A stretch of 64,000 bases of DNA from an uncultured Methanomassiliicoccales archaeon (GCA_963732855.1 CAVTBB010000002.1:336632-400631), one strand, 5' to 3'. Positions 8,691 to 55,168 are shown, numbered from the stretch's first letter. Notes: generated by a model from the sequence alone, not told the origin. Translations and numbers: made by a program.

Positions 8691-8727
8691 GCCTTTTGTT
8701 TCGATTATCGTTTCATCGGAAATATTA

Positions 8728-10473: not shown

Positions 10474-10844
10474 TTGGGCTCACACTCCGGGCAGACACCG
10501 CGGAGATGCAGCTCCCACCTTTCAACCTTCATTCCGGTCTTGCGGGAGAGTTCTGGCACATTAAGGTCGAACGGCACAGAATAGAGCCTGTGACAGACCG
10601 AGCACTCGAAGTGGGCGTTTGAGAAAGGGTGTTTCACGAAAGCTGCGGAAGAGCTCATCTTCGATTCTGATATCAACCCTTCCAGCACCAGTTTGTTGAG
10701 GTTTCGGTAGACCGTACCCAGACTGACGTTCGGCAATCGCTCCTTGGCCTTCAAATAGACATGCTCGGCTGTGATAGGGGAGTCGCTGTTGTAAACAATG
10801 TCCACGATGACCTTCAGCTGCTTCGTCCATCGTGTTTTGGGCAT
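10464..10844 (-). CDS. Fur/PerR-family metalloregulator
   Basis: SLGTVYRNL recognition helix, HFECSVC and GVCPEC zinc-site motifs. Confidence 0.9.
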   Translation of the reverse strand: MPKTRWTKQLKVIVDIVYNSDSPITAEHVYLKAKERLPNVSLGTVYRNLNKLVLEGLISESKMSSSAAFVKHPFSNAHFECSVCHRLYSVPFDLNVPELSRKTGMKVERWELHLRGVCPECEPKCT

Positions 10845-28957: not shown

Positions 28958-29053
28958 GCAGGTGTAATCTAGCGGTTAGGATTTTAGCCTTCCAATCCCC
29001 AGAAATGGGGACGAGGCTAGCTAAACACTCGGGTTCGAATCCCGACACCTGCA
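28958..29053 (+). tRNA. tRNA-Gly(TCC) with 24-nt intron (28995-29018) at canonical position 37/38
   Basis: Acceptor GCAGGTG/CACCTGC, anticodon stem TTAGC/GCTAA, loop CT-TCC-A|intron|A, T-arm TCGGG-TTCGAAT-CCCGA. Confidence 0.92.
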
Positions 29054-32030: not shown

Positions 32031-34589
32031 ATGATTAGTATTGTACTTCTGACGTTGGTGATTTCAGGGTTGATCATGGTCGCCCTAGGCGTGTACTCAC
32101 GTAGTCACAAAGCGGTCCCAGCGCAGCTTCCGTTCGAATTCATGGTCTATCTGGTCGCAGCCTGGTGCCTTTTCTTTGCCATGGATGGACTGACCGATGA
32201 CCCTTCAATAAAACTGATTGCGTTTCAAATTGTGTTAGGGATCGTGGCCTTGGTCCCAATTATCACCCTAATTACAATCATCTATCTGTTCGGACTGCAG
32301 AAGGTCCTTACTGGATGGAGGGTCGTGGGTCTATTCGTGATCCCATTCATGATGATCCTGATTAACGCCACCAACGGGCTTACATCCTGGTTCATCACTG
32401 GGTACCAACAAATAGAAACAGCTGGTTTTTCCTCGCTTGCACTCGAATACGGACCGGCTTTTCTTGCCCATACCGCCTATTCTTACATTATAATACTAAC
32501 AACACTTGCATTGCTTGTCTGGCATACTTTTCATAATCCCGGCATCTATAGGTGGCGGGATATCATTGTCCTCATAGGTTTCACAATACCCTTCATTGGC
32601 AATGCCCTCGTCATCACTGGGGCATCCGGTGGGTTCGATGTCACTCCGATCCTCTTCGTATTCACCAGTTTCTCATTGGCATTCGCCCTGTTCCGTTACC
32701 AGATGCTCAGCCTTATGCCCGTGGCCAGAGGAGTGATAATGGATATTTCGTCCGATCCAATACTGGTCCTAGACCAGAACGGGAAATTGGTGGACCTCAA
32801 CCCTAAGGCCACTACTCTAATCGGCCTTTCCCCTCGATCGATCGGGCAGGATGCCTCGACATTATTCAAAGAACATCAGGCTATTCTCGATGTGATGGAT
32901 GGAGTTAGTGCAGAAAACCGGATAGTGGTATTGCAGACCACTACAGGCATTAAATACTTTGATTGTCAGGTCGACGAAATGATGGATGGCAACCAGCATA
33001 TGGGCAGGGTGGTCATCCTTCGCGACATCAGTGTCAGCAAAATCGCCCAGGACGCGCTCAGGGAGAGCGAGGAGCGTTATCGGGCGATATTCGACCAATT
33101 CCTGGGATCTATCTTCGTGGTAGATCTGACAGATAGTTCTATCCTCCAGGCAAATCAGTCGTTCTGTCACTTCTTTGGATACGCAGATGATGAGGTATTG
33201 GGACTAAAAATGAGCGCTATCCCATCCATCGATGGTACCATCGTTAAGAAAGTGATGGATACCGTTCGCGGAGGACATCGACTGGTAGTGGAGACGTCTG
33301 CCTCCCGGTTCGATGGAAAGGTTATGAATCTGGAGATCTCGGCCAGCCCTATCAGATATGGGGGCAAGGACGCGGTCTGCGTGATGGGATGGGATGTCAC
33401 GGAACGGCGCCACGCAGAGGCTGATCGAGAACGGATCGAGAAGCTCGAAGCAACAGGCACGCTTGCTGGCGGCATCGCTCACGACTTCAATAACCTGTTG
33501 ACCGGCGTCCTCGGTTACGTTTCACTCACCAAGCAGCGGACTGATCGAGGGGCTGAGACCTACAAGGGACTGCAGGAAGCGGAAATGGCCATATTGCAGG
33601 CTAAGGAAATTGCGCAGGAACTGCTCTCGCTGGCCAAGGGTGGATCCCCTATAAGGAAACCAGTTTCGATTTCAGATCTGCTAAAGGTCGCATCTAATCA
33701 TCCTTTCTTCAACAGCAATGTGCGTTGTAGTCTTGCAATACCCCCAGGACTGTGGCCGGCTTACGTAGACCCCGGCCAGATGGGTAGGGTATTCACAAAC
33801 CTTTTCCTGAACGCGAAGGATGCCATGCCGCAAGGAGGAACGGTGGAGGTTTCAGTGGCCAACATAATCGTCGACTTCAATAATCACCCAACCTTGGAAC
33901 CGGGCCGATACCTCGAAATAATCATCAAGGACGAGGGAATGGGAATTCCTGAGCATGTCCTTACAAAGATTTTTGAACCATATTTTACTACAAAAGTGAA
34001 AGGTTACGGTCTAGGGCTATCGGTGGTCTACGCCACCGTGACCAGGCATAATGGCAGCATAGATGTTGAATCAAAGGAGGGCAAAGGAACGACGTTCAAG
34101 ATCTGCCTTCCAGCAACGGACGAACAACCATCTGAAGGTGTTGTTGAAGAGGCAGTAATACCCCAAGGTAAAGGCCACGTCCTGGTCATGGACGATGAGG
34201 AGTATATCCTAGATGTGATCAACGAACTGCTTCAGGCACTGGGATATGATGTGGGAGTCGCACGAGACGGGGAAGAAGCGATCCGGGAATACAAACTAGC
34301 TATGGATGCAGGTCGGAGATATGACATCGTTTTAATGGACCTGACCAATATAAGGGGTATGGGAGGCAAGGAGGCAATCGTAGGATTGCTTGCCTTGGAT
34401 CCTTCTGCTCGAGCTATTGTCTCGTCAGGTTATTCGAACGACCCGGTAATGGCTGAATATACGAAGTATGGATTCGCAGGAGTATTGCCCAAACCCTATA
34501 AAATGGAGGAATTGGCAATGTCGATTAAGCAAATCATGGCCTCCGAGATTGTCTTTAATCCGCAGGAAATGGCTGAAGACACCAGTTAG
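32031..34589 (+). CDS. Hybrid histidine kinase: N-terminal 7TM (HisKA_7TM-like), 2 PAS, HisKA, HATPase, receiver
   Basis: 7 hydrophobic helices, AGGIAHDFNNLL, NLFLNAKDAM, FTTK..GYGLGLS, LVMDDE...VLMDL...KPY. Confidence 0.92.
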   Translation: MISIVLLTLVISGLIMVALGVYSRSHKAVPAQLPFEFMVYLVAAWCLFFAMDGLTDDPSIKLIAFQIVLGIVALVPIITLITIIYLFGLQKVLTGWRVVGLFVIPFMMILINATNGLTSWFITGYQQIETAGFSSLALEYGPAFLAHTAYSYIIILTTLALLVWHTFHNPGIYRWRDIIVLIGFTIPFIGNALVITGASGGFDVTPILFVFTSFSLAFALFRYQMLSLMPVARGVIMDISSDPILVLDQNGKLVDLNPKATTLIGLSPRSIGQDASTLFKEHQAILDVMDGVSAENRIVVLQTTTGIKYFDCQVDEMMDGNQHMGRVVILRDISVSKIAQDALRESEERYRAIFDQFLGSIFVVDLTDSSILQANQSFCHFFGYADDEVLGLKMSAIPSIDGTIVKKVMDTVRGGHRLVVETSASRFDGKVMNLEISASPIRYGGKDAVCVMGWDVTERRHAEADRERIEKLEATGTLAGGIAHDFNNLLTGVLGYVSLTKQRTDRGAETYKGLQEAEMAILQAKEIAQELLSLAKGGSPIRKPVSISDLLKVASNHPFFNSNVRCSLAIPPGLWPAYVDPGQMGRVFTNLFLNAKDAMPQGGTVEVSVANIIVDFNNHPTLEPGRYLEIIIKDEGMGIPEHVLTKIFEPYFTTKVKGYGLGLSVVYATVTRHNGSIDVESKEGKGTTFKICLPATDEQPSEGVVEEAVIPQGKGHVLVMDDEEYILDVINELLQALGYDVGVARDGEEAIREYKLAMDAGRRYDIVLMDLTNIRGMGGKEAIVGLLALDPSARAIVSSGYSNDPVMAEYTKYGFAGVLPKPYKMEELAMSIKQIMASEIVFNPQEMAEDTS

Positions 34590-40610: not shown

Positions 40611-41003
40611 TTAGCGGAGCCAGACCAGCTCTTCCTTGGTCTTGTTGGCTACGTTCTGAATTCTGGCGAGCATGCTCTCGTCAGTGACGTCCCTGTCGCA
40701 TGTTAGTGCGATCATCAGGCTCTGAGACAGCTCCCAGACGAATATCTTTTTGGTCTTGTAGACACCAATGACGTACTCCAGTTTATCCTTCTTAGGCTCC
40801 ACCCTAGAAGCCTCGGCAGAACTGAATATGACCGAGATCATCGCGGAGAACATCTCTGGCTTTGCTGGCAATCTGCTTGGGTCCCCTGTGATGATGAGGC
40901 CGCTTTTCGATACGACCGAGACACTCTCGATCTTCTGGTCCGTGCCGAACTCAGCGTTGATTATTTCGTCGAGGACGTTCTCGACCGATTTCGTTCCCTG
41001 CAT
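40611..41003 (-). CDS. Roadblock/LC7-domain protein
   Basis: IESVSVVSKSGLII, FSAMISVI..SAE helix, beta-beta-beta-alpha C-terminus; about 130 aa. Confidence 0.7.
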   Translation of the reverse strand: MQGTKSVENVLDEIINAEFGTDQKIESVSVVSKSGLIITGDPSRLPAKPEMFSAMISVIFSSAEASRVEPKKDKLEYVIGVYKTKKIFVWELSQSLMIALTCDRDVTDESMLARIQNVANKTKEELVWLR

Positions 41004-42283: not shown

Positions 42284-42649
42284 TCACTGGCTGGTCTGGT
42301 GGTTTGTAGTGGTAGAGCCGCTATCTGGATTCAGCTTCAGGTCAAAGCTGCTCTTTCCACCATCCTTGAATTCCGTCGTAAGGACCATCCGGCTATCGTT
42401 TATGATCAGCGACATGCGTTCCATGTTGGACGAGTACGTTCTATTTCGTTTGTTTGATCCAATTCCCTTCAGCAACCCCAATTTCTCCAGGTCCTTAATG
42501 CGCCTATAGCACTTGACCTGCGGTATTTTAAGTACTTCACAGAGCTCTCTCACCCCTCTTGGATTGGTATAGGTAAGAGCTAGTATCTTCGCGGCATCGG
42601 CGTCAAGCGCTAATTCCGCAAGGTCAAACCCCACGGCCTTCGATTCCAT
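42284..42649 (-). CDS. Winged-helix HTH protein
   Basis: ELCEVLKIPQVKCYRRIKDLEKLGLL HTH pattern; divergent from the large surface protein. Confidence 0.7.
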   Translation of the reverse strand: MESKAVGFDLAELALDADAAKILALTYTNPRGVRELCEVLKIPQVKCYRRIKDLEKLGLLKGIGSNKRNRTYSSNMERMSLIINDSRMVLTTEFKDGGKSSFDLKLNPDSGSTTTNHQTSQ

Positions 42650-42895
42650 CAAAACAATTAACGGGCCGGATTATATATCATCATTTACTCAAGATTCTCC
42701 CGACTGATAGTGATAATAGACAAATTTCCTGACCATCCAGCAGGGTTTTGTGAATGAATATTTCACTCGGCCACCGATAATATAGAATCTAGAATCGGTA
42801 ATCCCCCATCAGTGGACCCGATTTGCACCTAGCGGAATTTAAGAGCAATTATATATGCACAATCACATTCATTTTTCCTGCACGGAGGGGATGGC

Positions 42896-45800
42896 GTGAG
42901 AAAAACATTGAGCGTTGTAGCACTAACGGTGTTTGCTGCAGCTCTAATGACAATTTCTCCATTTCTTTGTGCCATTGAAGGGAATGGCCAAACAACCAAC
43001 GGCACTTCTAATCCATCACCATTATCGAATGTCGGTCTGGTCGATGGCGACCCATTATTCGCCAAGCTCTCGACCACCCTTCAGACCAGGGCCAATCCAA
43101 GTTGTATGGCCGTCGCGGATCTGAACAATGACGATCTTCTGGACATTGCTGTTGGATATTCGAACAATAAGAGTCTTGATATATTCTTTCAAACTCAGAG
43201 TGGAAACTTCACCTTGAGAAGTCCAGGAATGACCCTCCCTTCACCGGTGTCATCCCTCGCGACGGGAGACATGGACAATGACGGCCAAGCAGACCTGATA
43301 TTGGGATACGACAGATACGTGGTAATCCTGTACCAGGCATCTTCGTTTTCCGTGGCTGGGGAATGGATTCGGACAGTCACTTACAAGGTTCATGGTTTGT
43401 CCATAGCCGATTTCGATAAAAACGGAAGATCTGACATTGCGGTCCTTCACACTCGCGACACCTCAATAGAAACAGCGAAAATCGACATGTTGTATGAGGA
43501 TGGATCTGGAGATTATTACACAGAATTCTCGTCTTCCATACCTGGAATGGATAGGCCCCGATCAATAAGTCTCGGAGACTTTGACAACAATGGTTTCATC
43601 GATATTGTAGTAGCCGATGAGAATAAAGGAATTGTTGCACCATACATTAATGACAATGCTTCACAAGAATGGGATGCGGCCCCTCAAATTTCAATCTCGG
43701 AGCCGGTTGGAATCAAGATAGGAAAATTCGATAGCTCAAACCTATTCGAACTGGCAATCGCCTCACGAGGAACGTTCACCAATCATGTGGAGATCTGGAA
43801 GTTCACTTCCCCTACAGCTCCATTTATATCCATTAAAACCACAACGAATGTCGATGGCGTTAACGGTTTCATCGATTATGACATGAACGACGATCCCTAC
43901 AGAGACATCGCCATCTCATCTAATTCTTCCTCCAGGATCAGCATATTCAATTCCCCGGCGAACCCGGGAACGGCCTATCCCTCAACCACCCAAGCGATCA
44001 TACCAGCAGGTTACGAGATCATCTCAATGCTCGGCAGTGACATCAATCATGACAATGTGGAAGACCTCGTTGTGAGCTCGAAAAGCTACGGGATCAACGG
44101 ATCGATCTCCATCTACTACCGAGTGGGTTCAGGAATATCGAACGCTAACGACAATGTGTTCCCATCTGCCACGAACCAGTCGGGTCTTGTAACGGGTGAT
44201 TATAACGCGGATGGAAGGATCGAGGTCGGTACGCTTGATAACACCGCAAGACGGCTGGTCTTTGTCGAGACCACGAGCCTGATTGCCTCGTACAAGACCT
44301 TCGATTATAGTGCTTCAAGAATCGTTTCAGGTCCATTGAAGACCCCGACCTCCTCGGATATCGTTGTCCTTCATCCCGATGACAACAAGATCAGCATCTA
44401 TCTCGGCGGATCTTCCTTCTTCAGTTCACAGGCCCCTTCATTAGTGATAAGTACTGGAGCGAACGCACCTAGATCGGTAGCGTTGGGAGATGTCAATGGA
44501 GATGGAAGGACCGATATCGTGATCGGTTGCCACGATGGAATCTTGATCCTGAACAACACCGGTTCGAACCCCTATTTCGCCAGCAACAAGAACATTACCA
44601 TCAGCCAGCCGGGTGCGGATTTCATATGGGTCGGCGTAGGGGATTACAACAACGGGGCCGAGGAAAATGAGCAGGCGCCAAAGCTCAATGACATTTTCGG
44701 TGCCTATCAGGATCTTAACCGAGTCATAATCTATTTCCAGCAAGACCAGCCCGTCAGGTTCACACCGATTAACAACCTCATTCTCGTCCCGGCCACCACG
44801 GGCAAGATCGTCTGGGCGGGCACGGGACATATCAACAATGATGGCCTTTCCGATATTGTGATAGGGCTCTCGACCAATCGATCGGTGACCTATCTTCAGA
44901 ATAATGCATACTCCAAAGGTTTCTCTAACTCGAGCGCCACGGACAAGGTTAACATTCCATCCCCGTATGGTTTCAGATATGCAAGTATCGGTGATCTTAA
45001 CGATGACGGCCTGGATGAGCTCGCCATAGCAGGATCTAAGGTGAATGTCATAACCGTATTTGGTTGGAAGCAGGGAAGGTACGTCCCATTCACCAACATG
45101 ACGACCGGGGCTGGAAGAGCTGTTTGCCTGGTTTCCGATCTTGATGGAGACAAGCGGAGTGATCTGATCGCCTCGTCCGAAGGTTCAGGCTCGATCTCGT
45201 TCCTGTACCAGAGGAATATGGCACCGAAGGCGGGCTTTTCAATAATGCCAGTCTCCCCCCATGAGACCGAAATAACCACTTTCGATGCCTCCAGCACAAC
45301 CGACGGCATCTCGGATATGAGTTCTATTAGTTATGCGTGGCTTTTTGATGGTACGATCGTCAAAACCGGCAAGACCGTAACTCACAGCTTCATGTTCAAC
45401 AGCCATTTCCGAACGCATACCGTCAAGCTCACGGTACAGGACCGCAACGGGTTATCCAATGTTTCCTCACAGGTCGTCATGGTCGAAGACGTGAAACCTG
45501 TTGCCAACTTTTACTTCAATCCGTCATCTCCGATAGAGGCCCAGCAGATCCATTTCACGGATGCTTCATCCTCCGTTACAGACACCATAATCCAATGGCT
45601 ATGGGACTTCGGGGATGGCAGCCCATCTTCCACTGACCGGAATCCTGTCCACACCTTCTATTTCAACCACTCATACGCGGTCAAACTGCGGGTGATCGAG
45701 GCCGATGGGAGCATGGAGAACTGCACCAAGATAGTTAACATGACCGATCGGCCCCCCCAGGTCAGCTTCATCACAACTGGCACCATGGTCGAGAACAGCA

Positions 45801-48800
45801 GCGTCTCCTTCACAGACGCCAGCAACTCGTTCGATGACACAATACTCTGGCGTGAGTGGGATTTCGGAGATGGCACGGCCAAAGTGAACACCAGCTTGGC
45901 CACTGTCAGTCACAAGTTCCATTATAGCGGTGCCTATTCGGTCACGCTGAGGATAGGGGACGACGACCACGCGATCAACCGGACGGTCAAACTCCTCAGT
46001 ATCGCTGACATCCTTCCGACCGCGAACTTCAATCCGAACGTTTTAACTATCTTGGAGAACGGCACCGTCCACTTCACCGACCGCTCGACCACATACTACA
46101 AGGACCACATTGTGGAATGGAGCTGGTCTTTCGGAGACGGATCAAGCGCCATCACGCACAACCCAGATCACCGCTATCAGTACAATGGAAGCTACCAGGT
46201 GAACCTGACCGTAAGATGCAATGACAGCTCCAGCTGGAGCGCTGTGCATTCCACCACGATCATCGTTGAGGATATTCCGCCAGCATCCAATTTCATCGTT
46301 AACGACCTGTCACCCTTGGAGAATGTGACGGTCAGCTTTGTTGACACCTCTTCCCATTATGACCCGATCATCTCCTGGCATTGGGACTTCGGGGATGGCA
46401 GCTTCAGCACGACCCAGAACCCGACCCACAAGTTCCTCCGAAATGGGACCTATCAGGTCATTCTGACGGTCACCGATTCTGACCAAGTGGCCAGCTCACC
46501 CAAGACTGTCAACATTGTCGTCCAGGATCTAAATCCAACGGCGCTGATCGAAATTCCGTGGGGAGCCAACCTGGAAGGGGACTCCATCCAATTCTTTGAC
46601 CGGTCCTTCTCATACGACCCGATCGACAAATGGTCATGGGACTTTGGCGACGGATTTTCCTCCAATGACCGCGACCCGGTGCACACCTATCGGCACTATG
46701 GGACGTACCAAGTCACTTTGAAGGTGTGGGACGGGGACAACCACTCAGCGAGCAGCACGTACACTGTTGAGATCACCATCCAAGATCGCGACCCCCGGGC
46801 ATCTTTCGACTTCACCACCGGAAGATATGAGAACACCACTGTCTGGTTCAATGAGACAGCCAACCCTTGGTTCGACCACATCGATAACTGGACCTGGGAC
46901 TTCGGGGACGGATCGGCTGTCGTATACACCAGAAATGCGTCCCATATCTATTCCCAGAACGGAACATACACGGTCAAGCTGACTGTGGTGGATAACAATT
47001 CCAAGACCAACATGGTGGCATCGAGCGTCACGGTCCTCGATTGCACTCCAATCTTAATCTTCAGTTTCCCCGAAGGCGTCTATGAGAACGAGACCGGATG
47101 GGTGAACTTCTTCAGCGCGTGTTATTCGCTTTATCCATCTGGTGATCCTATCGTCTATTGGGAATGGGATTTCGGGGACGGGATCAAGAACCTGTCCCAA
47201 GCAGCATCCCATTTGTTCCCATTGGCGGGCGATCACAGCGTCACCCTTCGCGTCAGGGACCTTGATGACAGACATACGACCAATCTTACCAAGACCATCC
47301 ATGTGATCAGCCTGGTACCGACCGCGGCCATCATGCCGATCGAAGGAGACTGGATCGAGGATGACAACGTCGTCCATTTCACCGATCTGTCCACTGCATA
47401 TAGGCTCGACCCGATCGTACAATGGTCATGGGATTTCGGGGACGGGTCGAGCAGTTCGGACAGGAACCCAGATCATTCCTATCAATGGGCGGGGACCTAT
47501 GTGGTCGGCCTGACAGTCACGGACTTGGACGGCGACCACTCAACCAGGACGACCGCCACGGTCAGGATAGGGCATGCGATACCGACCGCCTCTGTCCTAG
47601 TCATCACACCGAGGCCCTATGTCGTGGGCGATACGGTCACCTTCCAAAGCACCTCCACCGCAAGTCCGGACCATATCGCCCGGTTGCTCTGGGAATCGGA
47701 CGGGGACTCTGGCGACCAGAGCGTCTTCAGGCACCAATTCAATGCCAACAGTAACTTCTGGGTCAAACTGACCGTCTGGTCCAACGACAGTATCGAGAAT
47801 ACGACCACTGCCTTCGTCAATCTGGAACCGTCGGATGTCTCCATCGGCACCGCGGACGGCTCGACGAACAACCTGTATGTGGAGGACACCGCCGTGACCT
47901 TTGTGGTGGCCGCGACCAGATCGCCGACCGACCCCATCGTCAGCTATGTCTGGGACCTTTCGTTCGGAACAGGGTTTGTAGCCCAACCCCCGCGCACCGA
48001 GAACTCGATAACCTGGCATTTCAACCAATCAGGTTCCTACCTGGTCAAGGTGCGGGTATACGACACCGACGGATACACCGAGGCCCACAGGCAAATCAAC
48101 ATATTCGAGTCGGACCCGACCCCCGCATTCAACTGCGGCAATCTGAACTCCGAGGGACCGGTATGGTTCAACGCCAACCAAACCCATGATACACCCAGTG
48201 ACGTTTCCTTGCTCAGATTCCGGTGGAACTACGGAGATAGCTCCCCCTGGAGCGAGTGGAGCTCCGACGCCACCACAAGCCATAACTATCCCGGGGATGG
48301 CAACTACACGACGATCATGCAGGTCAAGGATGATTCAGGCAAGATCGTGGCCCTTACACGATCGGTCGTGGTCGACAGGTCGCCACCAAAGATCGAGATC
48401 TCCTCGCCCATTTCAAAAGCTTACATCGGTGATCCAATCTTCGTTTACGCGAACGTGACCGACCTGATCGGGGTCGAGAAGGTCGTCCTTATCTATACTG
48501 TCGGCAATCAAACCTTCGAAGTGGAGATGACGCGGGCCAACCAGGCGGGTTCCTTTGTGGCGGAGATACCGGCGCAGAACCGTTCGGTCAACCTGTCATA
48601 TGCAATCTCGGCGGTCGACGTGTCCGGGATGCAATCGCCGCTCTCACAATCGTTCCAGATAGTACTTTCGCAGCGCCCGACCCTGGACATGATGTGGGCT
48701 TTCGCGGTGTTGCTAATGAGCATCGTTTCAGCCCTACTGGTCGTTGCCTTCGTCACCAAACCGGTGGTGGACGAGGTGTTCGTCATCTATCATGATGGGT

Positions 48801-49171
48801 CGCTGCTCAGCCACCATACCAGGCACCTCAAGCCGAGCATGGATGACCAGATCCTCGGTTCCATGCTGATCGCCCTGCAATCGTTCGTCAAGGACTCGTT
48901 CAAGGACGAGTCGATGACCGATCTGAAACGTATGGAGTTCGGTGACAAGAGGATACTGGTGGAGCGCGAAGGCCCAATATTCCTGGCAGTCATCCTACGC
49001 GGCAAGAGGGACGGAAAGGCCACTCGCGAGATGAAATACTCCCTGGATGGGATCAACCACCGTTTCGGCGAGATGCTCAACCCGTGGGACGGCGACCTGG
49101 AGAAGGTCAGGGGAGTAAAGGACATGGTCAAGCCGCTGGTCAAGCGCAAAGGCCTCTTCAGGGATAAGTGA
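42896..49171 (+). CDS. Large cell-surface protein: signal peptide, about 14 FG-GAP/VCBS repeats, about 12 PKD domains, Ig-like domain, TM helix, cytoplasmic longin-like domain
   Basis: Repeated (G)D(F/L)NxDGxxDI motifs; repeated WDFGDG motifs; hydrophobic WAFAVLLMSIVSALLVVAFV followed by a C-terminal globular domain of about 135 aa. Confidence 0.85.
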   Translation: MRKTLSVVALTVFAAALMTISPFLCAIEGNGQTTNGTSNPSPLSNVGLVDGDPLFAKLSTTLQTRANPSCMAVADLNNDDLLDIAVGYSNNKSLDIFFQTQSGNFTLRSPGMTLPSPVSSLATGDMDNDGQADLILGYDRYVVILYQASSFSVAGEWIRTVTYKVHGLSIADFDKNGRSDIAVLHTRDTSIETAKIDMLYEDGSGDYYTEFSSSIPGMDRPRSISLGDFDNNGFIDIVVADENKGIVAPYINDNASQEWDAAPQISISEPVGIKIGKFDSSNLFELAIASRGTFTNHVEIWKFTSPTAPFISIKTTTNVDGVNGFIDYDMNDDPYRDIAISSNSSSRISIFNSPANPGTAYPSTTQAIIPAGYEIISMLGSDINHDNVEDLVVSSKSYGINGSISIYYRVGSGISNANDNVFPSATNQSGLVTGDYNADGRIEVGTLDNTARRLVFVETTSLIASYKTFDYSASRIVSGPLKTPTSSDIVVLHPDDNKISIYLGGSSFFSSQAPSLVISTGANAPRSVALGDVNGDGRTDIVIGCHDGILILNNTGSNPYFASNKNITISQPGADFIWVGVGDYNNGAEENEQAPKLNDIFGAYQDLNRVIIYFQQDQPVRFTPINNLILVPATTGKIVWAGTGHINNDGLSDIVIGLSTNRSVTYLQNNAYSKGFSNSSATDKVNIPSPYGFRYASIGDLNDDGLDELAIAGSKVNVITVFGWKQGRYVPFTNMTTGAGRAVCLVSDLDGDKRSDLIASSEGSGSISFLYQRNMAPKAGFSIMPVSPHETEITTFDASSTTDGISDMSSISYAWLFDGTIVKTGKTVTHSFMFNSHFRTHTVKLTVQDRNGLSNVSSQVVMVEDVKPVANFYFNPSSPIEAQQIHFTDASSSVTDTIIQWLWDFGDGSPSSTDRNPVHTFYFNHSYAVKLRVIEADGSMENCTKIVNMTDRPPQVSFITTGTMVENSSVSFTDASNSFDDTILWREWDFGDGTAKVNTSLATVSHKFHYSGAYSVTLRIGDDDHAINRTVKLLSIADILPTANFNPNVLTILENGTVHFTDRSTTYYKDHIVEWSWSFGDGSSAITHNPDHRYQYNGSYQVNLTVRCNDSSSWSAVHSTTIIVEDIPPASNFIVNDLSPLENVTVSFVDTSSHYDPIISWHWDFGDGSFSTTQNPTHKFLRNGTYQVILTVTDSDQVASSPKTVNIVVQDLNPTALIEIPWGANLEGDSIQFFDRSFSYDPIDKWSWDFGDGFSSNDRDPVHTYRHYGTYQVTLKVWDGDNHSASSTYTVEITIQDRDPRASFDFTTGRYENTTVWFNETANPWFDHIDNWTWDFGDGSAVVYTRNASHIYSQNGTYTVKLTVVDNNSKTNMVASSVTVLDCTPILIFSFPEGVYENETGWVNFFSACYSLYPSGDPIVYWEWDFGDGIKNLSQAASHLFPLAGDHSVTLRVRDLDDRHTTNLTKTIHVISLVPTAAIMPIEGDWIEDDNVVHFTDLSTAYRLDPIVQWSWDFGDGSSSSDRNPDHSYQWAGTYVVGLTVTDLDGDHSTRTTATVRIGHAIPTASVLVITPRPYVVGDTVTFQSTSTASPDHIARLLWESDGDSGDQSVFRHQFNANSNFWVKLTVWSNDSIENTTTAFVNLEPSDVSIGTADGSTNNLYVEDTAVTFVVAATRSPTDPIVSYVWDLSFGTGFVAQPPRTENSITWHFNQSGSYLVKVRVYDTDGYTEAHRQINIFESDPTPAFNCGNLNSEGPVWFNANQTHDTPSDVSLLRFRWNYGDSSPWSEWSSDATTSHNYPGDGNYTTIMQVKDDSGKIVALTRSVVVDRSPPKIEISSPISKAYIGDPIFVYANVTDLIGVEKVVLIYTVGNQTFEVEMTRANQAGSFVAEIPAQNRSVNLSYAISAVDVSGMQSPLSQSFQIVLSQRPTLDMMWAFAVLLMSIVSALLVVAFVTKPVVDEVFVIYHDGSLLSHHTRHLKPSMDDQILGSMLIALQSFVKDSFKDESMTDLKRMEFGDKRILVEREGPIFLAVILRGKRDGKATREMKYSLDGINHRFGEMLNPWDGDLEKVRGVKDMVKPLVKRKGLFRDK

Positions 49172-49212
49172 GGGCCGCAGGTAACCAGTTTATATCTTCA
49201 AAACATTGGGAC

Positions 49213-49950
49213 ATGGCAATGTCGGTCATTGAGAACCTGGCGATAGTGTTAGCATTATGCGCGATACTGTCGCTGATCTCCTACAAGTTCGGGTTGCTGA
49301 CGCCCAGCGGCAGTGCGGCCTCGTTCATCATGGGAGTCGTGATCGGAGTGTTCGGCTCGATCAACTGGCTGATCATGCTGATCGCGTTCGCCCTGGCTGG
49401 CTTCGTAGTGACGCGGTATAAGATCGACGTCAAGATGAAGAACGGTCTGCAGGAGGGCAGCAAGGGCGAGAGGACATACAAGAATGTCTTCGCCAACGCT
49501 CTCGTGCCGGCGCTGATCGCGGTGATATCATACGCTGTGGGGATGCAGAACCGCGATATCGCCGCGCTTGCCTATCTCTGTTCCATAAGCGTGGCCGCCG
49601 CCGATACCATCGCCAGTGAGCTTGGGGTGCTCAGCCCACACGTCCGCCTGATCACCAATCTCAAAAAGGTGCCGGCCGGCACTGACGGCGGCATCTCCAT
49701 GTATGGGACTTTCTGGGCCATCATGGCGGCGCTTTTCTGTTCCCTCGCGGGTTGGGTCGTGCTCTTCCCCGGGACGGCCATAGACGCACGAGTGTTTGTG
49801 CCGATATTCATGGGCGTCTTCGGCTGCATGGTGGATTCGTTGATCGGGGCAACCTTCGAGACCTGGAAGATGGTAGATAAGCTCGGTAACAATGTCTCCT
49901 CTATGGCTATCGGGACATTGGCCGGCGTTTTGGTCCTCCTCTTCATCTAA
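49213..49950 (+). CDS. DUF92/TMEM19-family membrane protein
   Basis: R.YKNVFAN, AAADTIASELG, T.GGIS..GT, VDSLIGATFE. Confidence 0.85.
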   Translation: MAMSVIENLAIVLALCAILSLISYKFGLLTPSGSAASFIMGVVIGVFGSINWLIMLIAFALAGFVVTRYKIDVKMKNGLQEGSKGERTYKNVFANALVPALIAVISYAVGMQNRDIAALAYLCSISVAAADTIASELGVLSPHVRLITNLKKVPAGTDGGISMYGTFWAIMAALFCSLAGWVVLFPGTAIDARVFVPIFMGVFGCMVDSLIGATFETWKMVDKLGNNVSSMAIGTLAGVLVLLFI

Positions 49951-50010: not shown

Positions 50011-50517
50011 ATGCAGATCGAGATTAGGCCGGGTTTGCTCGTTTTCGTAAAGGGCAAAGGGGAGGATAGGGTCCGTGAGCTGATGACCAGTCTTAGATCT
50101 GCTGGATACCGGATCATGGCCGTCTCATCACGTCAATCTCAAGTAGTGATGGACGACTTGAAGGCACCTATCGGATGCGTCCTGACCTTGACCGAGACGG
50201 TCGGTCAATATTGCCTGGACCCACAGAACCTGATGGTGCTGACTGATACCATCACCAAGTTCATCGAGCGGGGAGGGCCCTCAGCCTTCCTGATTGAGGA
50301 TCTCGGATTGCTGAAGCAGAAGAATGACTTCCCCAAGGTGCTGCGGATGGTAGGTCATCTCAAGGAATCTTTGGCCATTAACCGGGGCATCGGTATCGCC
50401 ACCATCGACCCTCAATCGTGGGAGGAGAATGAACTAGCGCATTTTGGGAAGGAAGGGTGTATCGTAGAGGAGAAGGACCGCCTGGGAATGAAGTTCCAGC
50501 AGTCCGCGGACCATTAG
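50011..50517 (+). CDS. DUF835-like protein
   Basis: LDPQNL..LTDTITKFI, FLIEDL..L...NDF..VLRMV.HLKE pattern. Confidence 0.6.
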   Translation: MQIEIRPGLLVFVKGKGEDRVRELMTSLRSAGYRIMAVSSRQSQVVMDDLKAPIGCVLTLTETVGQYCLDPQNLMVLTDTITKFIERGGPSAFLIEDLGLLKQKNDFPKVLRMVGHLKESLAINRGIGIATIDPQSWEENELAHFGKEGCIVEEKDRLGMKFQQSADH

Positions 50518-50573: not shown

Positions 50574-50698
50574 TGGTATGACGGCCAAAGAGGCGGGGAT
50601 ACGCCTGGTCTCATCCGAACCCAGAAGCTAAGCCTGCCGTCGTTCGGCGCTGTACTGTGGTGCGCGAGCCCACGGGAACCTCCGAAAGCTGTCAGCCA
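50574..50698 (+). rRNA. rrf: 5S rRNA, copy 1
   Basis: Helix I TGACGGC/GCTGTCA, CTCATCCGAACCCAGAAGCTAAGC conserved 5S segment, upstream TTAAATAC TATA box, T-rich 3' end. Confidence 0.95.
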
Positions 50699-50852: not shown

Positions 50853-50977
50853 TGGTATGACGGCCAAAGAGGCGGGGATACGCCTGGTCTCATCCGAACC
50901 CAGAAGCTAAGCCTGCCGTCGTTCGGCGCTGTACTGTGGTGCGCGAGCCCACGGGAACCTCCGAAAGCTGTCAGCCA
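50853..50977 (+). rRNA. rrf: 5S rRNA, copy 2 (identical)
   Basis: Same 125-nt sequence as copy 1, with its own TTAAATAC TATA box upstream. Confidence 0.95.
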
Positions 50978-51347
50978 TTCTTATTTTATCAGAATTTATT
51001 GCATCAACTTTGTTTTTCACCCAAAGACTTCTTCATAGAGCGGGGAAAGGAATAAACTAAAGAAAGGTGGAGGAGAGGGCAGTCACGCCCCATCATGTTA
51101 CTGTCCTTCAGCATAAACCGTAGGCCGACATCACGCTCCATGATCCACAGCAAAAAGAGTTGCAGCGGCCTTCAGATCGGCGGTCATGATCGACAGACAT
51201 TGATAATCAGAACAGAGAAATGAAAAACGAGTCGCTCATATGATCAAAGAGGAATGGACAGTATTCAAGTCGTAAATTGAAAGCATCCAATAGGTTTAAT
51301 AATATTGATACTGGTTGTCATTCCAGTTATTCAAGTTGGTGCCACAG

Positions 51348-52208
51348 ATGGACCTGGACATTATCCTGGTAATCGTACTCCTATTAGTACTTGGAATTGC
51401 TGTTTTCATAGAACTGAGATACATCAGGTCCAAGAGAAGCGAGGGCATCGAGCGCGCGTTGGAAAAGGACGAATCTTTCAACGCCCTCAATACCACCAAG
51501 GCGGTAGGCCGTGCGCTCAAGGATAAGGGTCGGGACACGGCAAAGGCCGAATTGGAGTTGCTCCGAGGCAGCCTAGCCTATGATCGAGGCGATTACGCGG
51601 AGTGCATGGATTCGGTCAACAAGGCCAAGAAGCTCCTGGATTCAGCTCCAGATATCGGATTCGCAAACGAGGCGTCGAATGGACCTGAGGCCGATGATAG
51701 CACACCAGAAGAAGAACCGATGCAAGAACAAGCTACCATCGCGGATGCTAGGAAACTCCCACCGAACTACCTTGAATCCAAATTCATGATCAAGACCGCT
51801 GGAGATGAGATCGAGCGATTCCGATCGGAAGGCAAGGACGTCTCTGGATCTATGTACTTGCTCGATGAGGCAAGAATCGCGTTCGAATCAAAGGACTATG
51901 ATCTTGCCCTCAGAAAATCTCTCAAGGCTAAGAAAGGTGCCGAATCATCATCCGAGCCAGCTCAGATAGATGTGGTGAAGATAATCCCACCCATCAAGAC
52001 AGTGGAGATAGACATCGTGAAGGATTCTTCGAGTTCATCGGCCTGCAGCAACTGTGGGGCCGATTCCCGGATCGATGATGTGTTCTGCGCTAAATGTGGC
52101 AAACCCATTGTAAGGACGCGAGCATGTACTGCCTGCGGGACGAAATTGTCCGAGGATGACGTGTTCTGCCGTAAATGCGGGACAGAGGTCAAGACCGCAT
52201 ACCATTGA
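51348..52208 (+). CDS. Membrane-anchored helical protein with C-terminal double zinc ribbon
   Basis: N-terminal TM helix; CSNCG..FCAKCG and CTACG..FCRKCG. Confidence 0.75.
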   Translation: MDLDIILVIVLLLVLGIAVFIELRYIRSKRSEGIERALEKDESFNALNTTKAVGRALKDKGRDTAKAELELLRGSLAYDRGDYAECMDSVNKAKKLLDSAPDIGFANEASNGPEADDSTPEEEPMQEQATIADARKLPPNYLESKFMIKTAGDEIERFRSEGKDVSGSMYLLDEARIAFESKDYDLALRKSLKAKKGAESSSEPAQIDVVKIIPPIKTVEIDIVKDSSSSSACSNCGADSRIDDVFCAKCGKPIVRTRACTACGTKLSEDDVFCRKCGTEVKTAYH

Positions 52209-52331: not shown

Positions 52332-53108
52332 ATGATACTGGTCAAGCTCGGGGGCAGCGTTATCACCGACAAGACCACCTACCGGACATTCCGGGAAGGG
52401 GCGGTCCGCAGGCTTGCCCGTGAGATGATGACTACCAGCGAAGAGAAGATAGTTGTTCATGGAGCTGGCTCATATGGGCACATCTATGCCAAGGAGTACG
52501 CATTACAGACTGGACTCAAGGAGGAACGCCAGATCGAGGGCGTTGCCAAGGTCATGCAAGATGTACGCGAGTTGGACAATCTGGTCATTGGCGCGTTCAA
52601 CGAAGAGGGGATGTGGTCCGTTGCCGTGCCACCAGCTTCATCGGTGTTAATGAAAGGCGGCATCCTGTCGCATATGGATCTCTGGCCATTCGAACGTTTT
52701 CTACAGATCGGCATCACCCCGATAACCTTTGGCGACGTAGCGCTGGATGACGAAAAAGGAGTTAGCATATGCTCCGGAGACCAGCTCATGATGCGGCTAG
52801 CGGAGCGGTTCAGGCCGAGGAAGGTCATCTTCTGCGCCGACGTGGACGGGTTGTTCACAGCTGATCCGATCAGTGACCCGAACGCGAAGCTCATCGAAGA
52901 GGTCGACAAGAATTCACTTTCATCCATTCCCCGCACGGAACGCTGCGTGGACGTCACAGGGAGCATCTACGCGAAGATCGAATACATGCTCCAAATCGCC
53001 AAACATGCGGGCGAATGCGAGATTATCAATGGGAACGTCCATGGCAGACTGGGGGATGTTATTGCAGACCGTAAGGCAGTCTGTTCTCGGATCATCGGAG
53101 GTAATTGA
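52332..53108 (+). CDS. ipk: Isopentenyl phosphate kinase
   Basis: VKLGGSVITDK, VHGAGSYGH, SGDQ, DVDG, DVTG.I..KI; upstream of IDI-2. Confidence 0.92.
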   Translation: MILVKLGGSVITDKTTYRTFREGAVRRLAREMMTTSEEKIVVHGAGSYGHIYAKEYALQTGLKEERQIEGVAKVMQDVRELDNLVIGAFNEEGMWSVAVPPASSVLMKGGILSHMDLWPFERFLQIGITPITFGDVALDDEKGVSICSGDQLMMRLAERFRPRKVIFCADVDGLFTADPISDPNAKLIEEVDKNSLSSIPRTERCVDVTGSIYAKIEYMLQIAKHAGECEIINGNVHGRLGDVIADRKAVCSRIIGGN

Positions 53109-53109
53109 C

Positions 53110-54177
53110 TTGAAACAGATAGAAAAGAGAAAATCAGACCATATCGAGATCGCCCTGGAGGAGCAGGTCGGCTGCGGATACCGATATTGGGATGATGTAA
53201 AGATGGTCCATTGTGCTCTGCCAGAAGTGGACATGGCCGAGATCGATACGTCCTGCAGGCTGTTCGGCAAGAAGCTGGCCTTCCCATTGATCGTCACCGC
53301 CATCACCGGCGGCTATTCCAAGGCCGAAAAGATCAACCGGAACCTGGCGGAGGCATGCCAAAAGCTTCAGATCGGGATGGGCGTAGGCTCCGAGAGGGCG
53401 GCAGTGGAGAATGGTGCGGATGCGTCCTACACCGTCCTAAAAGAATACGATGTGCCGCTAAAGATCGGGAACGTCGGAGCACCACAGCTCATCAAGCAGA
53501 ACCGCAAGAAGGCCTTCACCGTGGATCAGGTGAAGAAGGCGATGGAGATCATCGACGCGGACGTGATGGCGATCCATCTTAATTTCCTGCAAGAGGTCGC
53601 GCAGCCTGAGGGCGACACTAACGCAAAGGGCTGTGTGGATGCTATCAGGAAGGTGGCAAGGGAAGTGCCTTCGATCGCCAAGGAGACCGGAGCGGGCATA
53701 TCACATGATGTGGCCATGAAGCTCAAAGGCAGCGGGATAATCGGCATGGATATCTCAGGAACGGGAGGGACCAGCTTTTCGGTGGTCGAACGCTTCCGCG
53801 CAGAACGGGTAGGCAACGCCCGATGCGCCGACATAGGAAGGTTGTTCTCCGACTGGGGAATTCCTGCCCCGGCATCCTTGTTGGAGGCGAGAGTAGGATT
53901 GCCGCTCATCGCCAGCGGTGGCGTGGAGGACGGATTGCAGGTGGCCAAGGCAATAGCGCTCGGCGCCAGTTGCGGAGGCATAGCCAGGGGCGTTCTAAAG
54001 GAGGCGATGGTCTCATCAAAGGCCGTCGAGGAGAAGCTCATCCTGATCAGGGAGGAGCTAAGGGCCGCAATGTTCTTGACCGGCTCCGCGGATGTGGCTT
54101 CACTGTCTTCCAAGGATTGCATCGTTACCGGCAAGACCGCCGAGTGGATAACCCAAAAGGACCAGGAGGGGATGTGA
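53110..54177 (+). CDS. fni: Type 2 isopentenyl-diphosphate delta-isomerase (FMN-dependent)
   Basis: RKSDHI, AITGG, MGVGSER, IHLN.LQEVAQPEGD, KETGAG, GGTSF, DWGIP; TTG start inferred. Confidence 0.95.
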   Translation: MKQIEKRKSDHIEIALEEQVGCGYRYWDDVKMVHCALPEVDMAEIDTSCRLFGKKLAFPLIVTAITGGYSKAEKINRNLAEACQKLQIGMGVGSERAAVENGADASYTVLKEYDVPLKIGNVGAPQLIKQNRKKAFTVDQVKKAMEIIDADVMAIHLNFLQEVAQPEGDTNAKGCVDAIRKVAREVPSIAKETGAGISHDVAMKLKGSGIIGMDISGTGGTSFSVVERFRAERVGNARCADIGRLFSDWGIPAPASLLEARVGLPLIASGGVEDGLQVAKAIALGASCGGIARGVLKEAMVSSKAVEEKLILIREELRAAMFLTGSADVASLSSKDCIVTGKTAEWITQKDQEGM

Positions 54178-54178
54178 A

Positions 54179-55168
54179 ATGGAGTTCCCTGAGGAAATGA
54201 TCACTATAGCAAATGATGTGGACAAGAGCCTGATGGCATATCTGGACATCGGGAAGCATGAGAAGCTGCGCCAGGCCATGAAACACTACCCGGAGGCTGG
54301 TGGAAAGCGTATGCGCCCAGTGATGGCCATTCTGGTCGCCGAGGCGGTCGGCAAGAAGGGGCATAAGGCAATGCCGTTCGGCTGCTCTCTTGAGATCATA
54401 CACAATTTCACCCTGGTGCATGACGATGTCATCGACCAGGACCCGGTCAGGCGGGGAAGGCCAGCTGTCCACGTTCTGTTCGATGTTCCCACCGCGATCA
54501 TCGCCGGTGACGCCCTGTTCGCCATCGGCTATGAGGTGTTGTCCGAGACCGACGTCGGTCTGGAGGACCTCCGGACCATTTTCCACTCCGTCTCCGAGAC
54601 CGTTTACTTGATCGCTGAAGGGCAACAGATGGACGTCGATTTCGAAGGAACTGTCACTGTAAAGATCGAAGAGTACGTGGAAATGGTGGAGAAGAAGACC
54701 GCGGTACTGTTCGCCTGCGCTGCCGAAGGCGGCGCCATCATTGGCGGCGGGACCAAGAAGCAGGTCGCCGACATGAAGGAGTACGCCCGCCTGATGGGCA
54801 TAGGGTTCCAAATGTGGGATGACGTGCTGGGCATCAAGGGCGACACCAAGAAGACCGGTAAACCGGTCGGCTCCGACATCAGGAACGGCAAAAGGACGCT
54901 GATCATTGTCCATGCCATGGAGCATCTGAAGGAAGGCTCCAAGGACAAGGCGACATTACTCGCTGCCCTTGGCAAAGCGGACGCTACTGATGCTCAGGTG
55001 AAAGATGCGATCGGCTTGCTGGAAAAGATCGGTTCGATCGAGTACGCCCGCACCGAGGCGATGCGCTATGCGACCGAGGCGAAACAGAAGCTCGAATGCC
55101 TCGGTCCAAGCCGCGAGAAGGATGTGCTTGCGGCGTTCGTTGATTTCGCGGTAGGACGAGAGGCTTGA
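54179..55168 (+). CDS. idsA: Geranylgeranyl diphosphate synthase (polyprenyl synthase)
   Basis: GGKRMRP, VHDDVID...RRG, GQQMD, KKTA, FQMWDD. Confidence 0.93.
   Translation: MEFPEEMITIANDVDKSLMAYLDIGKHEKLRQAMKHYPEAGGKRMRPVMAILVAEAVGKKGHKAMPFGCSLEIIHNFTLVHDDVIDQDPVRRGRPAVHVLFDVPTAIIAGDALFAIGYEVLSETDVGLEDLRTIFHSVSETVYLIAEGQQMDVDFEGTVTVKIEEYVEMVEKKTAVLFACAAEGGAIIGGGTKKQVADMKEYARLMGIGFQMWDDVLGIKGDTKKTGKPVGSDIRNGKRTLIIVHAMEHLKEGSKDKATLLAALGKADATDAQVKDAIGLLEKIGSIEYARTEAMRYATEAKQKLECLGPSREKDVLAAFVDFAVGREA

Follow-up and report, generated by a model that had tools for sequence, protein, structure and literature searches.

A predicted longin-fold cytoplasmic tail on a conserved archaeal surface receptor belongs to a widespread prokaryotic family with genomic links to small GTPases

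Throughout eukaryotic membrane traffic, small GTPases dock on longin and roadblock domains, whose prokaryotic history is known mainly from soluble MglB-type roadblocks and from Asgard proteins, the longin permutation itself being usually credited to eukaryotes and Asgard archaea. Both domain types are established small-GTPase platforms (PMC3747258, PMC3521125, PMC10933270), and in the core of TRAPP, which acts on Rab1, a longin heterodimer is flanked by subunits of the Bet3 family, whose member TRAPPC3/Bet3 shares ancestry with V4R (PMC10933270). Asgard GTPase genes generally share no operon with genes for roadblock, longin or TRAPPC3 proteins (PMC10933270), and the bacterial modules built around Group-1 Rup GTPases contain a conserved domain whose function is unknown (Wuichet & Søgaard-Andersen 2014, PMC4316618). 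Here we analyze a 64,000-nucleotide stretch of DNA (the window; GCA_963732855.1 CAVTBB010000002.1:336632-400631) from an uncultured Methanomassiliicoccales archaeon, in which one gene encodes a 2,091-residue surface receptor with a C-terminal tail that resembles this bacterial domain in sequence and is predicted to adopt a longin fold. The original prediction, made from the DNA alone, had described the gene as an integrin-like receptor that couples outside binding to an intracellular longin module.

The receptor open reading frame (ORF) starts at a GTG codon and occupies 42896..49171 on the plus strand, the same coordinates as first proposed. It has the layout of a type-I membrane protein, with a signal peptide, FG-GAP blades, a PKD stalk, a single transmembrane (TM) helix and a folded tail (Table 1), and its N-terminal sequence, MRKTLSVVALTVFAAALMTISPFLCA, is that of a typical signal peptide. 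The tail carries the motifs by which it had originally been recognized and could be delimited as the last 133 residues of the protein, in which the conserved stretches are MLxAxQxFVKDSFKD in helix 1, FG, WDGD and RG. Several independent lines of sequence evidence place this tail in the cytoplasm, as had been anticipated: the single TM helix separates it from the ectodomain led by the signal peptide; all 44 N-X-S/T sequons of the protein (44/44) belong to the ectodomain, leaving the tail without any; a KRRKP stretch directly follows the TM helix in paralogues, in keeping with the positive-inside rule; zinc ribbons or DUF835 are appended to the tail in relatives; and in bacterial homologues the domain and a peptidoglycan-binding OmpA domain lie on opposite sides of the TM helix.

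We modeled the tail with AlphaFold2 from two alignments, one of 18 close homologues, which gave a predicted local distance difference test score (pLDDT) of 76.7, and one of 23 diverse family members, which gave a pLDDT of 87.8 and a predicted template-modeling score (pTM) of 0.83, with all five models between 85 and 88. Both models have the same topology, ββαβββαα, in exactly the element order read earlier from the hydrophobic pattern: strands at tail residues 2-7 and 12-17, a helix at 26-43, strands at 53-57, 60-67 and 70-77, and helices at 82-103, 110-113 and 116-125. Strand β1 begins five residues past the TM helix with no helix before it, whereas roadblock domains, unlike longins, carry an N-terminal helix (PMC3521125, PMC10933270). 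Because β1 is not preceded by a helix and the extra helices are C-terminal, the modeled tail corresponds to the longin permutation. In line with this, Foldseek searches of the PDB returned 23-29 matches at E ≤ 1e-3, almost all of them longins, chiefly the AP-1/2/3 sigma and mu N-terminal domains, COPI zeta/delta, Sec22b, Mon1/Ccz1 and BLOC-3. These longin matches spanned 115-130 aligned columns at a query template-modeling score (TMq) of 0.5-0.74, and that to Sec22b reached a score of 0.72-0.74 with a root-mean-square deviation of 2.6 Å over about 121 of 127 residues. Matches to roadblock, LAMTOR and LC7 proteins ranked below the longins and covered the core only (74-89 columns, scores of 0.30-0.45). 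The models thus support the assignment of a longin fold to the tail well.

At the sequence level, the tail matched none of the Pfam longin families (Longin, Clat_adaptor_s, Sybindin, Sedlin_N, Fuz_longin_1) above the curated threshold. Its best Pfam match, to Fuz_longin_1, scored 12.8 bits (E 0.14) against a cutoff of 26.1, and when the tail and 24 diverse family members were scanned with Pfam and NCBIfam, matches stayed at noise level, to Fuz_longin_1 in 2 of the 24 and to Robl_LC7 in 1 (E 0.036). NCBIfam left the tail itself unmatched, and PDB sequence searches with the tail and two family profiles gave chance matches only and no longin. Alignment of the tail family to a roadblock-like protein encoded in the window by hhalign had a consistent register and was not significant (P 0.019, probability 2.5%). 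As far as Pfam, NCBIfam and the PDB extend, the tail is therefore not an already characterized domain, which agrees with the earlier expectation.

Searched with a profile, 1.84 billion cluster representatives (50%-identity clusters) yielded 4,672 members of the tail family at E ≤ 1e-3 and 2,776 at E ≤ 1e-10, a far richer harvest than that of other homologue searches, started from the tail or the diverse alignment, which gave only about 20 short fragments. Among the 147 best representatives, the domain ends within 85 residues of the C-terminus in 125, is followed by zinc-ribbon-like extensions in 18 and is present in two or three copies in 26; a TM-like segment lies no more than 45 residues upstream of it in 101 of 143 assessable representatives. 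The architectures seen include a signal peptide followed by a varied ectodomain (PKD, CARDB, He_PIG, Big_9, DUF11), a TM helix and the tail; a tandem pair of domains behind four TM helices; and giant proteins of about 2,300 residues that have no TM helix, repeat a unit of helical repeats, CARDB-like domain and tail domain two or three times and end in DUF5915. Fusions to DUF835, which has been named 'iKaiC' as an inactivated KaiC and serves also as a response-regulator output (PMC5847659), occur in both orders, as TM-domain-DUF835 (P0149) and as DUF835-domain (P0104, P0136). In locus L075 (1-3298), P0149 consists of a TM helix, the longin-fold domain, a long low-complexity linker and DUF835, and its gene adjoins a second tail-domain gene, oppositely oriented and apparently frameshifted, as well as a gene for a 1,755-residue NosD/beta-helix surface protein. 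Helix 1 (MLxAIQDFVxDSF) is the element whose conservation extends over both bacteria and archaea, and of the 38 residues invariant among the tails of GTPase-coupled paralogues the window tail has kept 30. The central helix is the dimerization region in roadblock proteins (PMC10933270), and we infer that helix 1 of the tail also forms part of a GTPase-binding surface.

Our genome scan, which used one genome per species, returned 74 loci, 6 of which lack the synteny with DUF92 described below and are treated here as paralogous. In three of these six (L059, L063 and L064) a Ras-family gene (Pfam Ras, E 6e-30 to 1.5e-37) lies directly beside the tail-bearing gene, and in L064 two GTPases and a V4R protein are encoded immediately upstream of it. 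A metagenome scan with an alignment of paralogue tails yielded 80 further loci, and a Ras-family gene lies within 1.5 kb in 14 of the 31 non-orthologous loci among them that have enough flanking DNA. At one of these metagenome loci, L099 (4616-11608), three successive tail-bearing ORFs are followed by a 290-residue Ras-family GTPase, and in the one scanned, at 8387-10714, the tail comes after a DUF11 ectodomain and a TM helix.

Many of these metagenome loci are bacterial, and their protein consists of a helical N-terminus, the tail domain, a TM helix and OmpA. It is encoded in a four-gene module together with a coiled-coil protein, a Ras-family GTPase and a histidine-kinase-like protein, an arrangement that matches the Group-1 Rup neighborhood of Wuichet & Søgaard-Andersen 2014 (PMC4316618). 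In phmmer searches the window tail matched 16-19 of these domain-TM-OmpA proteins at 36-53 bits over residues 4 to about 120, and an orthologue-only profile of the window tail family raised the same proteins to 58-74 bits. These scores provide solid sequence support for homology between the window tail and the unknown domain of the bacterial Group-1 Rup modules.

A reciprocal test started from Thermoplasmata genes annotated as 'Rab family GTPase' and recovered a Ras-Ras-V4R-receptor operon in three of four loci (L159, L161 and L162). The gene order is a small RHH-like ORF, a Ras-family gene of about 272 codons, a second of about 160 codons, V4R and a large surface protein, whose extreme C-terminus in all three loci is the tail domain (E 1e-31 to 1e-38). 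Given that Asgard genomes generally lack such operons, those of the Thermoplasmata link the three folds with unusual explicitness. The Ras protein of about 272 residues bears a helical C-terminal extension, and in L159 and L161 the opposite strand carries a KaiC-like gene one or two genes downstream.

Our preferred reading, which we hold with moderate confidence, is that a cytoplasmic P-loop switch docks on the tail, which would act as a longin-type platform anchored in the membrane. We favor such a signaling platform because association with GTPases, kinases and iKaiC runs through the family and because the tail is strongly conserved, and our confidence is only moderate because no GTPase adjoins the window gene. 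The protein would be a conserved, single-copy, heavily N-glycosylated type-I receptor or adhesin that displays two Ca2+-type FG-GAP propellers on a stalk of 12 PKD domains, and its tail, by analogy with other longin and roadblock domains, would probably act as a dimer. Ligand binding to the ectodomain, or its clustering, would then set the location or the nucleotide state of the switch protein. Candidate partners at this locus would be the DUF835 protein encoded two genes downstream and a zinc-ribbon protein, ZnR297; a Rab/Rup-like GTPase whose gene lies elsewhere in the genome may be another.

The portability of the tail, which together with its TM helix forms a cassette at the extreme C-terminus behind many ectodomains, would also suit a sorting or trafficking tag that is read by a cytoplasmic machine for targeting, positioning or packaging surface proteins, for instance at the cell pole or into extracellular vesicles. 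Such a tag would resemble the recognition of cargo and adaptors by eukaryotic longin proteins, and the Rab-like GTPases and V4R (Bet3-like) protein associated with the paralogues are in keeping with it. We nonetheless consider it improbable: known prokaryotic C-terminal sorting signals are short whereas the tail is a folded domain of 130 residues, the bacterial version sits N-terminal to the TM helix beside kinases or cyclases, which points to signaling, and no sorting enzyme is conserved nearby in the syntenic loci.

Several observations weigh against the docking-platform reading. There is no small GTPase or V4R gene in the 64-kb window, where a search that included extra KaiC proteins found only RadB, and a GTPase or V4R gene adjoins the receptor gene in 0 of 68 syntenic genome loci and 0 of 10 orthologous metagenome loci. 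The downstream position is occupied by a DUF835 gene in only 26 of the 68 orthologous loci, the window included. The neighbors that are universally conserved, DUF92, IPK, IDI2, GGPS and RadB, look like housekeeping genes, so that the synteny may be historical rather than functional. Pfam, hhalign and PDB searches found no sequence-level link between the tail and the longin or roadblock families, and the longin assignment, made from modeled structures, stays a prediction. Finally, a role as guanine nucleotide exchange factor (GEF), GTPase-activating protein (GAP) or scaffold, and outside-in coupling as such, would be extrapolations from genomic association. The neighbor co-occurrence that the original prediction had put forward as a check is thus found at the level of the family, in which operons or fusions join the tail to Ras, V4R and DUF835; the window gene and its orthologues have no GTPase beside them.

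With regard to the candidate partners encoded at the locus itself, no Walker A GK[ST] motif occurs in the DUF835 protein of the window, as would be expected of an 'iKaiC'. DUF835 as a universal neighbor was rejected, only 26 loci carrying it. ZnR297 is kept in synteny in most orthologous loci and contains two copies of an uncurated helical repeat of about 55 residues (GxDVxxAxxLLxxAxxAxxxxDYxxA). Repeats of this type precede the tail domain in the giant proteins, with full-sequence E values of 1e-6 to 7e-2 and domain E values of 1e-4 to 1e-2 in a set of 165 sequences, and by eye the motif is identical. In three giants (P0019, P0058 and P0088; about 2,300 residues, cytoplasmic), some 20 ZnR297-type repeats alternate with CARDB-like and longin-fold domains ahead of the DUF5915 end. 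The helical ZnR297 shows no similarity to the coiled-coil proteins of the bacterial Rup modules.

The gene content of the window is archaeal (archaeosine tRNA-guanine transglycosylase, RadB, XPD, isopentenyl-phosphate kinase, type-2 IDI and GGPP synthase), and all 74 loci of the genome scan come from Methanomassiliicoccales, Thermoplasmata or Thermoplasmatota metagenome-assembled genomes. A common gene order, pyrB, pyrI, (roadblock-like), AAA_17 kinase, (winged helix), receptor, DUF92, (DUF835), ZnR297, IPK, IDI2, GGPS, RadB, XPD, is kept in 68 of the 74, which argues that the receptor gene is a vertically inherited, single-copy component of the genome and no mobile adhesin. Between orthologues, the tail is the best-conserved part of the receptor, at 51-60% identity versus 23-35% for the propellers and PKD stalk, and the two-propeller-plus-PKD design is retained despite this divergence. 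The nearest orthologue (5012-10399 of L001, OW818644.1) has a tail 93% identical to that of the window receptor and is about 300 residues shorter; it is the first half of the PKD stalk, where identity is 52%, that accounts for the difference in length, so that the number of PKD domains varies among close relatives.

This pattern of inheritance invites a structural explanation, in which the receptor would be the principal glycoprotein of the envelope, or an S-layer-like one, in archaea that have a light wall or none, and its tail would only dimerize or oligomerize it or tie it to a cytoplasmic scaffold (ZnR297) and transmit no signal. A single-copy gene that keeps its place next to housekeeping and lipid genes in both Methanomassiliicoccales and Thermoplasmata, a huge and fast-evolving ectodomain with 44 sequons, and the lack of an adjacent GTPase are all as such an anchor would have them, as are the fusion of the ZnR297 repeat to the tail domain in giant cytoplasmic proteins and the standing of longin and roadblock domains as classic dimerization modules (PMC10933270). 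We judge this explanation unlikely, albeit one to be taken seriously, as the same tail is carried by many unrelated ectodomains and by bacterial OmpA-type proteins in GTPase/histidine-kinase modules, the residues shared with GTPase-coupled paralogues are largely kept (30/38) and a plain anchor would not require the strongest conservation in the protein to reside in its tail.

Directly downstream of the receptor gene in 68 of the 74 genome loci is the gene for the membrane protein DUF92, whose GTG start codon in the window overlaps the TGA stop codon of the receptor (GTGA), so that the two are translationally coupled. The genes for IPK, type-2 IDI and GGPP synthase (52332-55168) follow after DUF835, two 5S rRNA genes and ZnR297, and form with DUF92 a conserved isoprenoid cluster, to which DUF92 may belong rather than with the receptor. 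DUF92 also lies near a giant multi-longin gene in L078. The GTGA coupling and the adjacent isoprenoid genes, along with the placement of longins in a wider PAS/GAF-like group (PMC4917890), suggest a further possibility, namely that the alpha-beta sandwich of the tail binds an intracellular metabolite, in the manner of PAS and GAF domains, which are remote structural kin of longins, for example an isoprenoid phosphate made by the DUF92/IPK/GGPS neighbors, and signals from the inside out. This strikes us as very improbable: there is no PAS or GAF ligand-binding domain among the top 50 Foldseek matches, no pocket was detected, the most conserved element is helix 1, the central helix that mediates dimerization in roadblock proteins (PMC10933270), and the link to DUF92 is absent in the paralogues.

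The ectodomain was resolved by Pfam and by repeat hidden Markov models (HMMs) built from the receptor itself. Pfam finds FG-GAP_3 in nine stretches (E 3e-36) and FG-GAP in five (E 7e-24), the self-built HMM detects 12 FG-GAP units, and two degenerate units (around residues 255-295 and 458-500) complete a 50-residue spacing that brings the number of blades to 14, at least eight of which carry DxDxDG-type Ca2+ motifs. The original count of blades is thereby borne out, 12 by the self-HMM and two by spacing, and 14 blades would suffice for two seven-bladed propellers; the proposed 7+7 grouping follows from blade number and spacing. The signal peptide, 12 PKD repeats and single TM helix were likewise recovered, by Pfam, the self-HMM and hydropathy. 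Tandem Repeats Finder detected no DNA-level tandem repeats in the receptor gene, which suggests that the PKD array is old and has undergone no recent amplification. An HMM search found no second copy of the tail domain in the window, and an exact look-up of the window's own protein returned no record.

Upstream of the receptor, pyrI and the AAA_17 kinase gene flank the gene for a stand-alone roadblock-like protein, an arrangement kept in 16 Methanomassiliicoccales loci; the protein has N- and C-terminal helices, as in MglB, and no MglA-like GTPase gene adjoins it. The position of the divergent winged-helix gene is conserved in Methanomassiliicoccales loci as well. Elsewhere in the window, the two 5S rRNA genes (50577-50697 and 50856-50976, plus strand, 83.2 Rfam bits each) lie within a 279-bp direct repeat, isolated between the DUF835 and zinc-ribbon genes with no 16S or 23S rRNA gene nearby; a 96-nucleotide tRNA at 28958-29053 (plus strand) is reported by Rfam (55.6 bits) and not by ARAGORN and probably contains an intron; and a gene at 32031-34589 (plus strand) encodes a hybrid sensor kinase with a HisKA_7TM membrane domain, PAS domains, HisKA/HATPase_c and a C-terminal receiver.

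Table 1. Features of the receptor gene, its neighbors in the window and the related Thermoplasmata operons.
Feature	Position	Strand	Basis or remark
Putative archaeal TATA-like box TTATATAT, AT-rich	42849-42856	+	About 40 nt 5' of GTG; read from sequence
Putative ribosome-binding site GGAGGGG	42884-42890	+	Read from sequence
Signal peptide, about aa 1-26	42896..42973	+	MRK, hydrophobic stretch, CAIEG; hydropathy segment aa 7-25
14 FG-GAP blades, aa 55-767	43058..45196	+	Pfam, self-HMM, spacing, DxDxDG motifs
Stalk of 12 PKD (Ig-like) domains, aa 774-1826	45215..48373	+	Pfam PKD_4, 12 stretches, E 3e-134; self-HMM, 12 units
Membrane-proximal beta-sandwich region, aa 1827-1931	48374..48688	+	Weak: Pfam Big_7 E 0.079 at aa 1831-1865
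Sole C-terminal TM helix, aa 1932-1954, MMWAFAVLLMSIVSALLVVAFVT	48689..48757	+	Sequence, hydropathy scan
Predicted cytoplasmic longin-fold tail, aa 1959-2091, 133 aa	48770..49168	+	AlphaFold2, Foldseek, family profile
DUF92 (VTE6/TMEM19-type) integral membrane protein	49168..49950	+	Pfam DUF92 E 5.6e-54
DUF835 (inactivated KaiC-like) protein, candidate cytoplasmic partner	50011..50517	+	Pfam DUF835 E 3.8e-17
ZnR297, TM + helical-repeat + double zinc-ribbon protein, candidate partner/scaffold	51315..52208	+	Pfam Zn_ribbon_3, DZR
Roadblock/LC7-like stand-alone protein, 1.9 kb upstream of receptor	40611..41003	-	Pfam Robl_LC7 E 2e-3, under curated cutoff
TrmB-like winged-helix protein, divergent, possible local regulator	42284..42652	-	Weak: Pfam TrmB E 9e-4
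RHH-Ras-Ras-V4R-receptor operons	L064 3250-10390; L159 8738-15713; L161 8682-14532; L162 8729-15454

The longin fold type and the GTPase-platform role are already known, and the family's bacterial branch had drawn attention in 2014 as a domain without a name. Recognition of the longin fold in this family, its use as an archaeal receptor tail, the Ras-Ras-V4R-receptor operons and the DUF835 fusions were found in none of Pfam 2025, NCBIfam 2026 or the searched literature. Our analysis would place a longin-order domain directly on surface receptors in non-Asgard archaea and in bacteria, in thousands of clusters with no database model, and would give a predicted structural identity to the unknown domain of the bacterial Rup modules. 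It also supplies operon-defined pairs of GTPase and regulator that are open to biochemistry, bears on the pre-eukaryotic history of the longin, TRAPP and Rab modules, and suggests that prokaryotic surface receptors could signal through P-loop switches instead of histidine kinases. For the Methanomassiliicoccales, their most conserved large surface protein is marked as a probable receptor and not a passive adhesin. A bolder proposal, prompted by the combination in the Thermoplasmatota operons of Rab-like GTPases, a V4R (Bet3/TRAPPC3-like) protein and a receptor-tethered longin, which together represent the folds of the TRAPP core and its Rab substrate, is that the longin-type GTPase platform is an old and widespread prokaryotic transmembrane-signaling module, that the Thermoplasmatota operons encode a receptor-anchored 'proto-TRAPP' exchange factor and that the window protein is the conserved housekeeping member of this receptor class, using DUF835/iKaiC or a distal GTPase. 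We offer this as a tentative and somewhat doubtful idea.

Set beside known systems, the receptor shares with integrin alpha its FG-GAP propeller units with Ca2+ DxDxDG loops, an Ig-like stalk, a single TM helix and a cytoplasmic tail, but it has blades for two propellers rather than one, a PKD stalk instead of thigh and calf domains, and a folded 133-residue domain in place of a short tail. The description 'integrin-like' accordingly holds for the FG-GAP propellers and not for the leg domains, the GFFKR motif or the beta subunit: Pfam gives no Integrin_alpha2 match, the juxtamembrane sequence is TKPVVDEVF with GFFKR absent, and no beta-subunit-like gene occurs among the annotated neighbors. 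Roadblock/LC7-MglB proteins have a related core of five-stranded sheet and central helix and a family role as GTPase platforms, but place a helix before strand 1, where the window tail has none and carries its extra helices at the C-terminus. The eukaryotic longins (AP sigma/mu-N, COPI zeta/delta, Sec22b/VAMP7/Ykt6, Mon1/Ccz1, TRAPPC1/C4) have the same ββαβββαα order that is predicted for the tail, likewise without an N-terminal helix, and, like the tail family in its genomic context, are tied to Ras-superfamily GTPases and a Bet3/V4R-type protein; the window tail differs from them in lacking detectable sequence similarity and a SNARE motif, in being fused to a receptor TM helix and in its non-Asgard host.

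The two prokaryotic systems are closer. The Group-1 Rup membrane protein carries what by sequence is the same domain, cytoplasmic, beside a single TM helix and without a Pfam model. There, however, the domain is N-terminal to the TM helix and the outside part is a small peptidoglycan-binding OmpA, for which Pfam gives no match in the window receptor, whose tail is C-terminal to a 1,930-residue ectodomain with the external FG-GAP and PKD domains N-terminal to the TM helix; and the Rup module comprises four genes, including those for a coiled-coil protein, the Rup GTPase and a kinase or cyclase, whereas the window has no GTPase nearby. The proteins of the Thermoplasmata operons (L064, L159, L161, L162) bear other ectodomains (Big_1, Invasin_D3, CLIPPER/DUF11), have a GTPase and V4R in the operon and lack the DUF92/ZnR297 synteny, but they share with the window receptor the entire layout of signal peptide, large Ig-type ectodomain, TM helix and predicted longin-fold tail, and their tails are 43-48% identical to its own.

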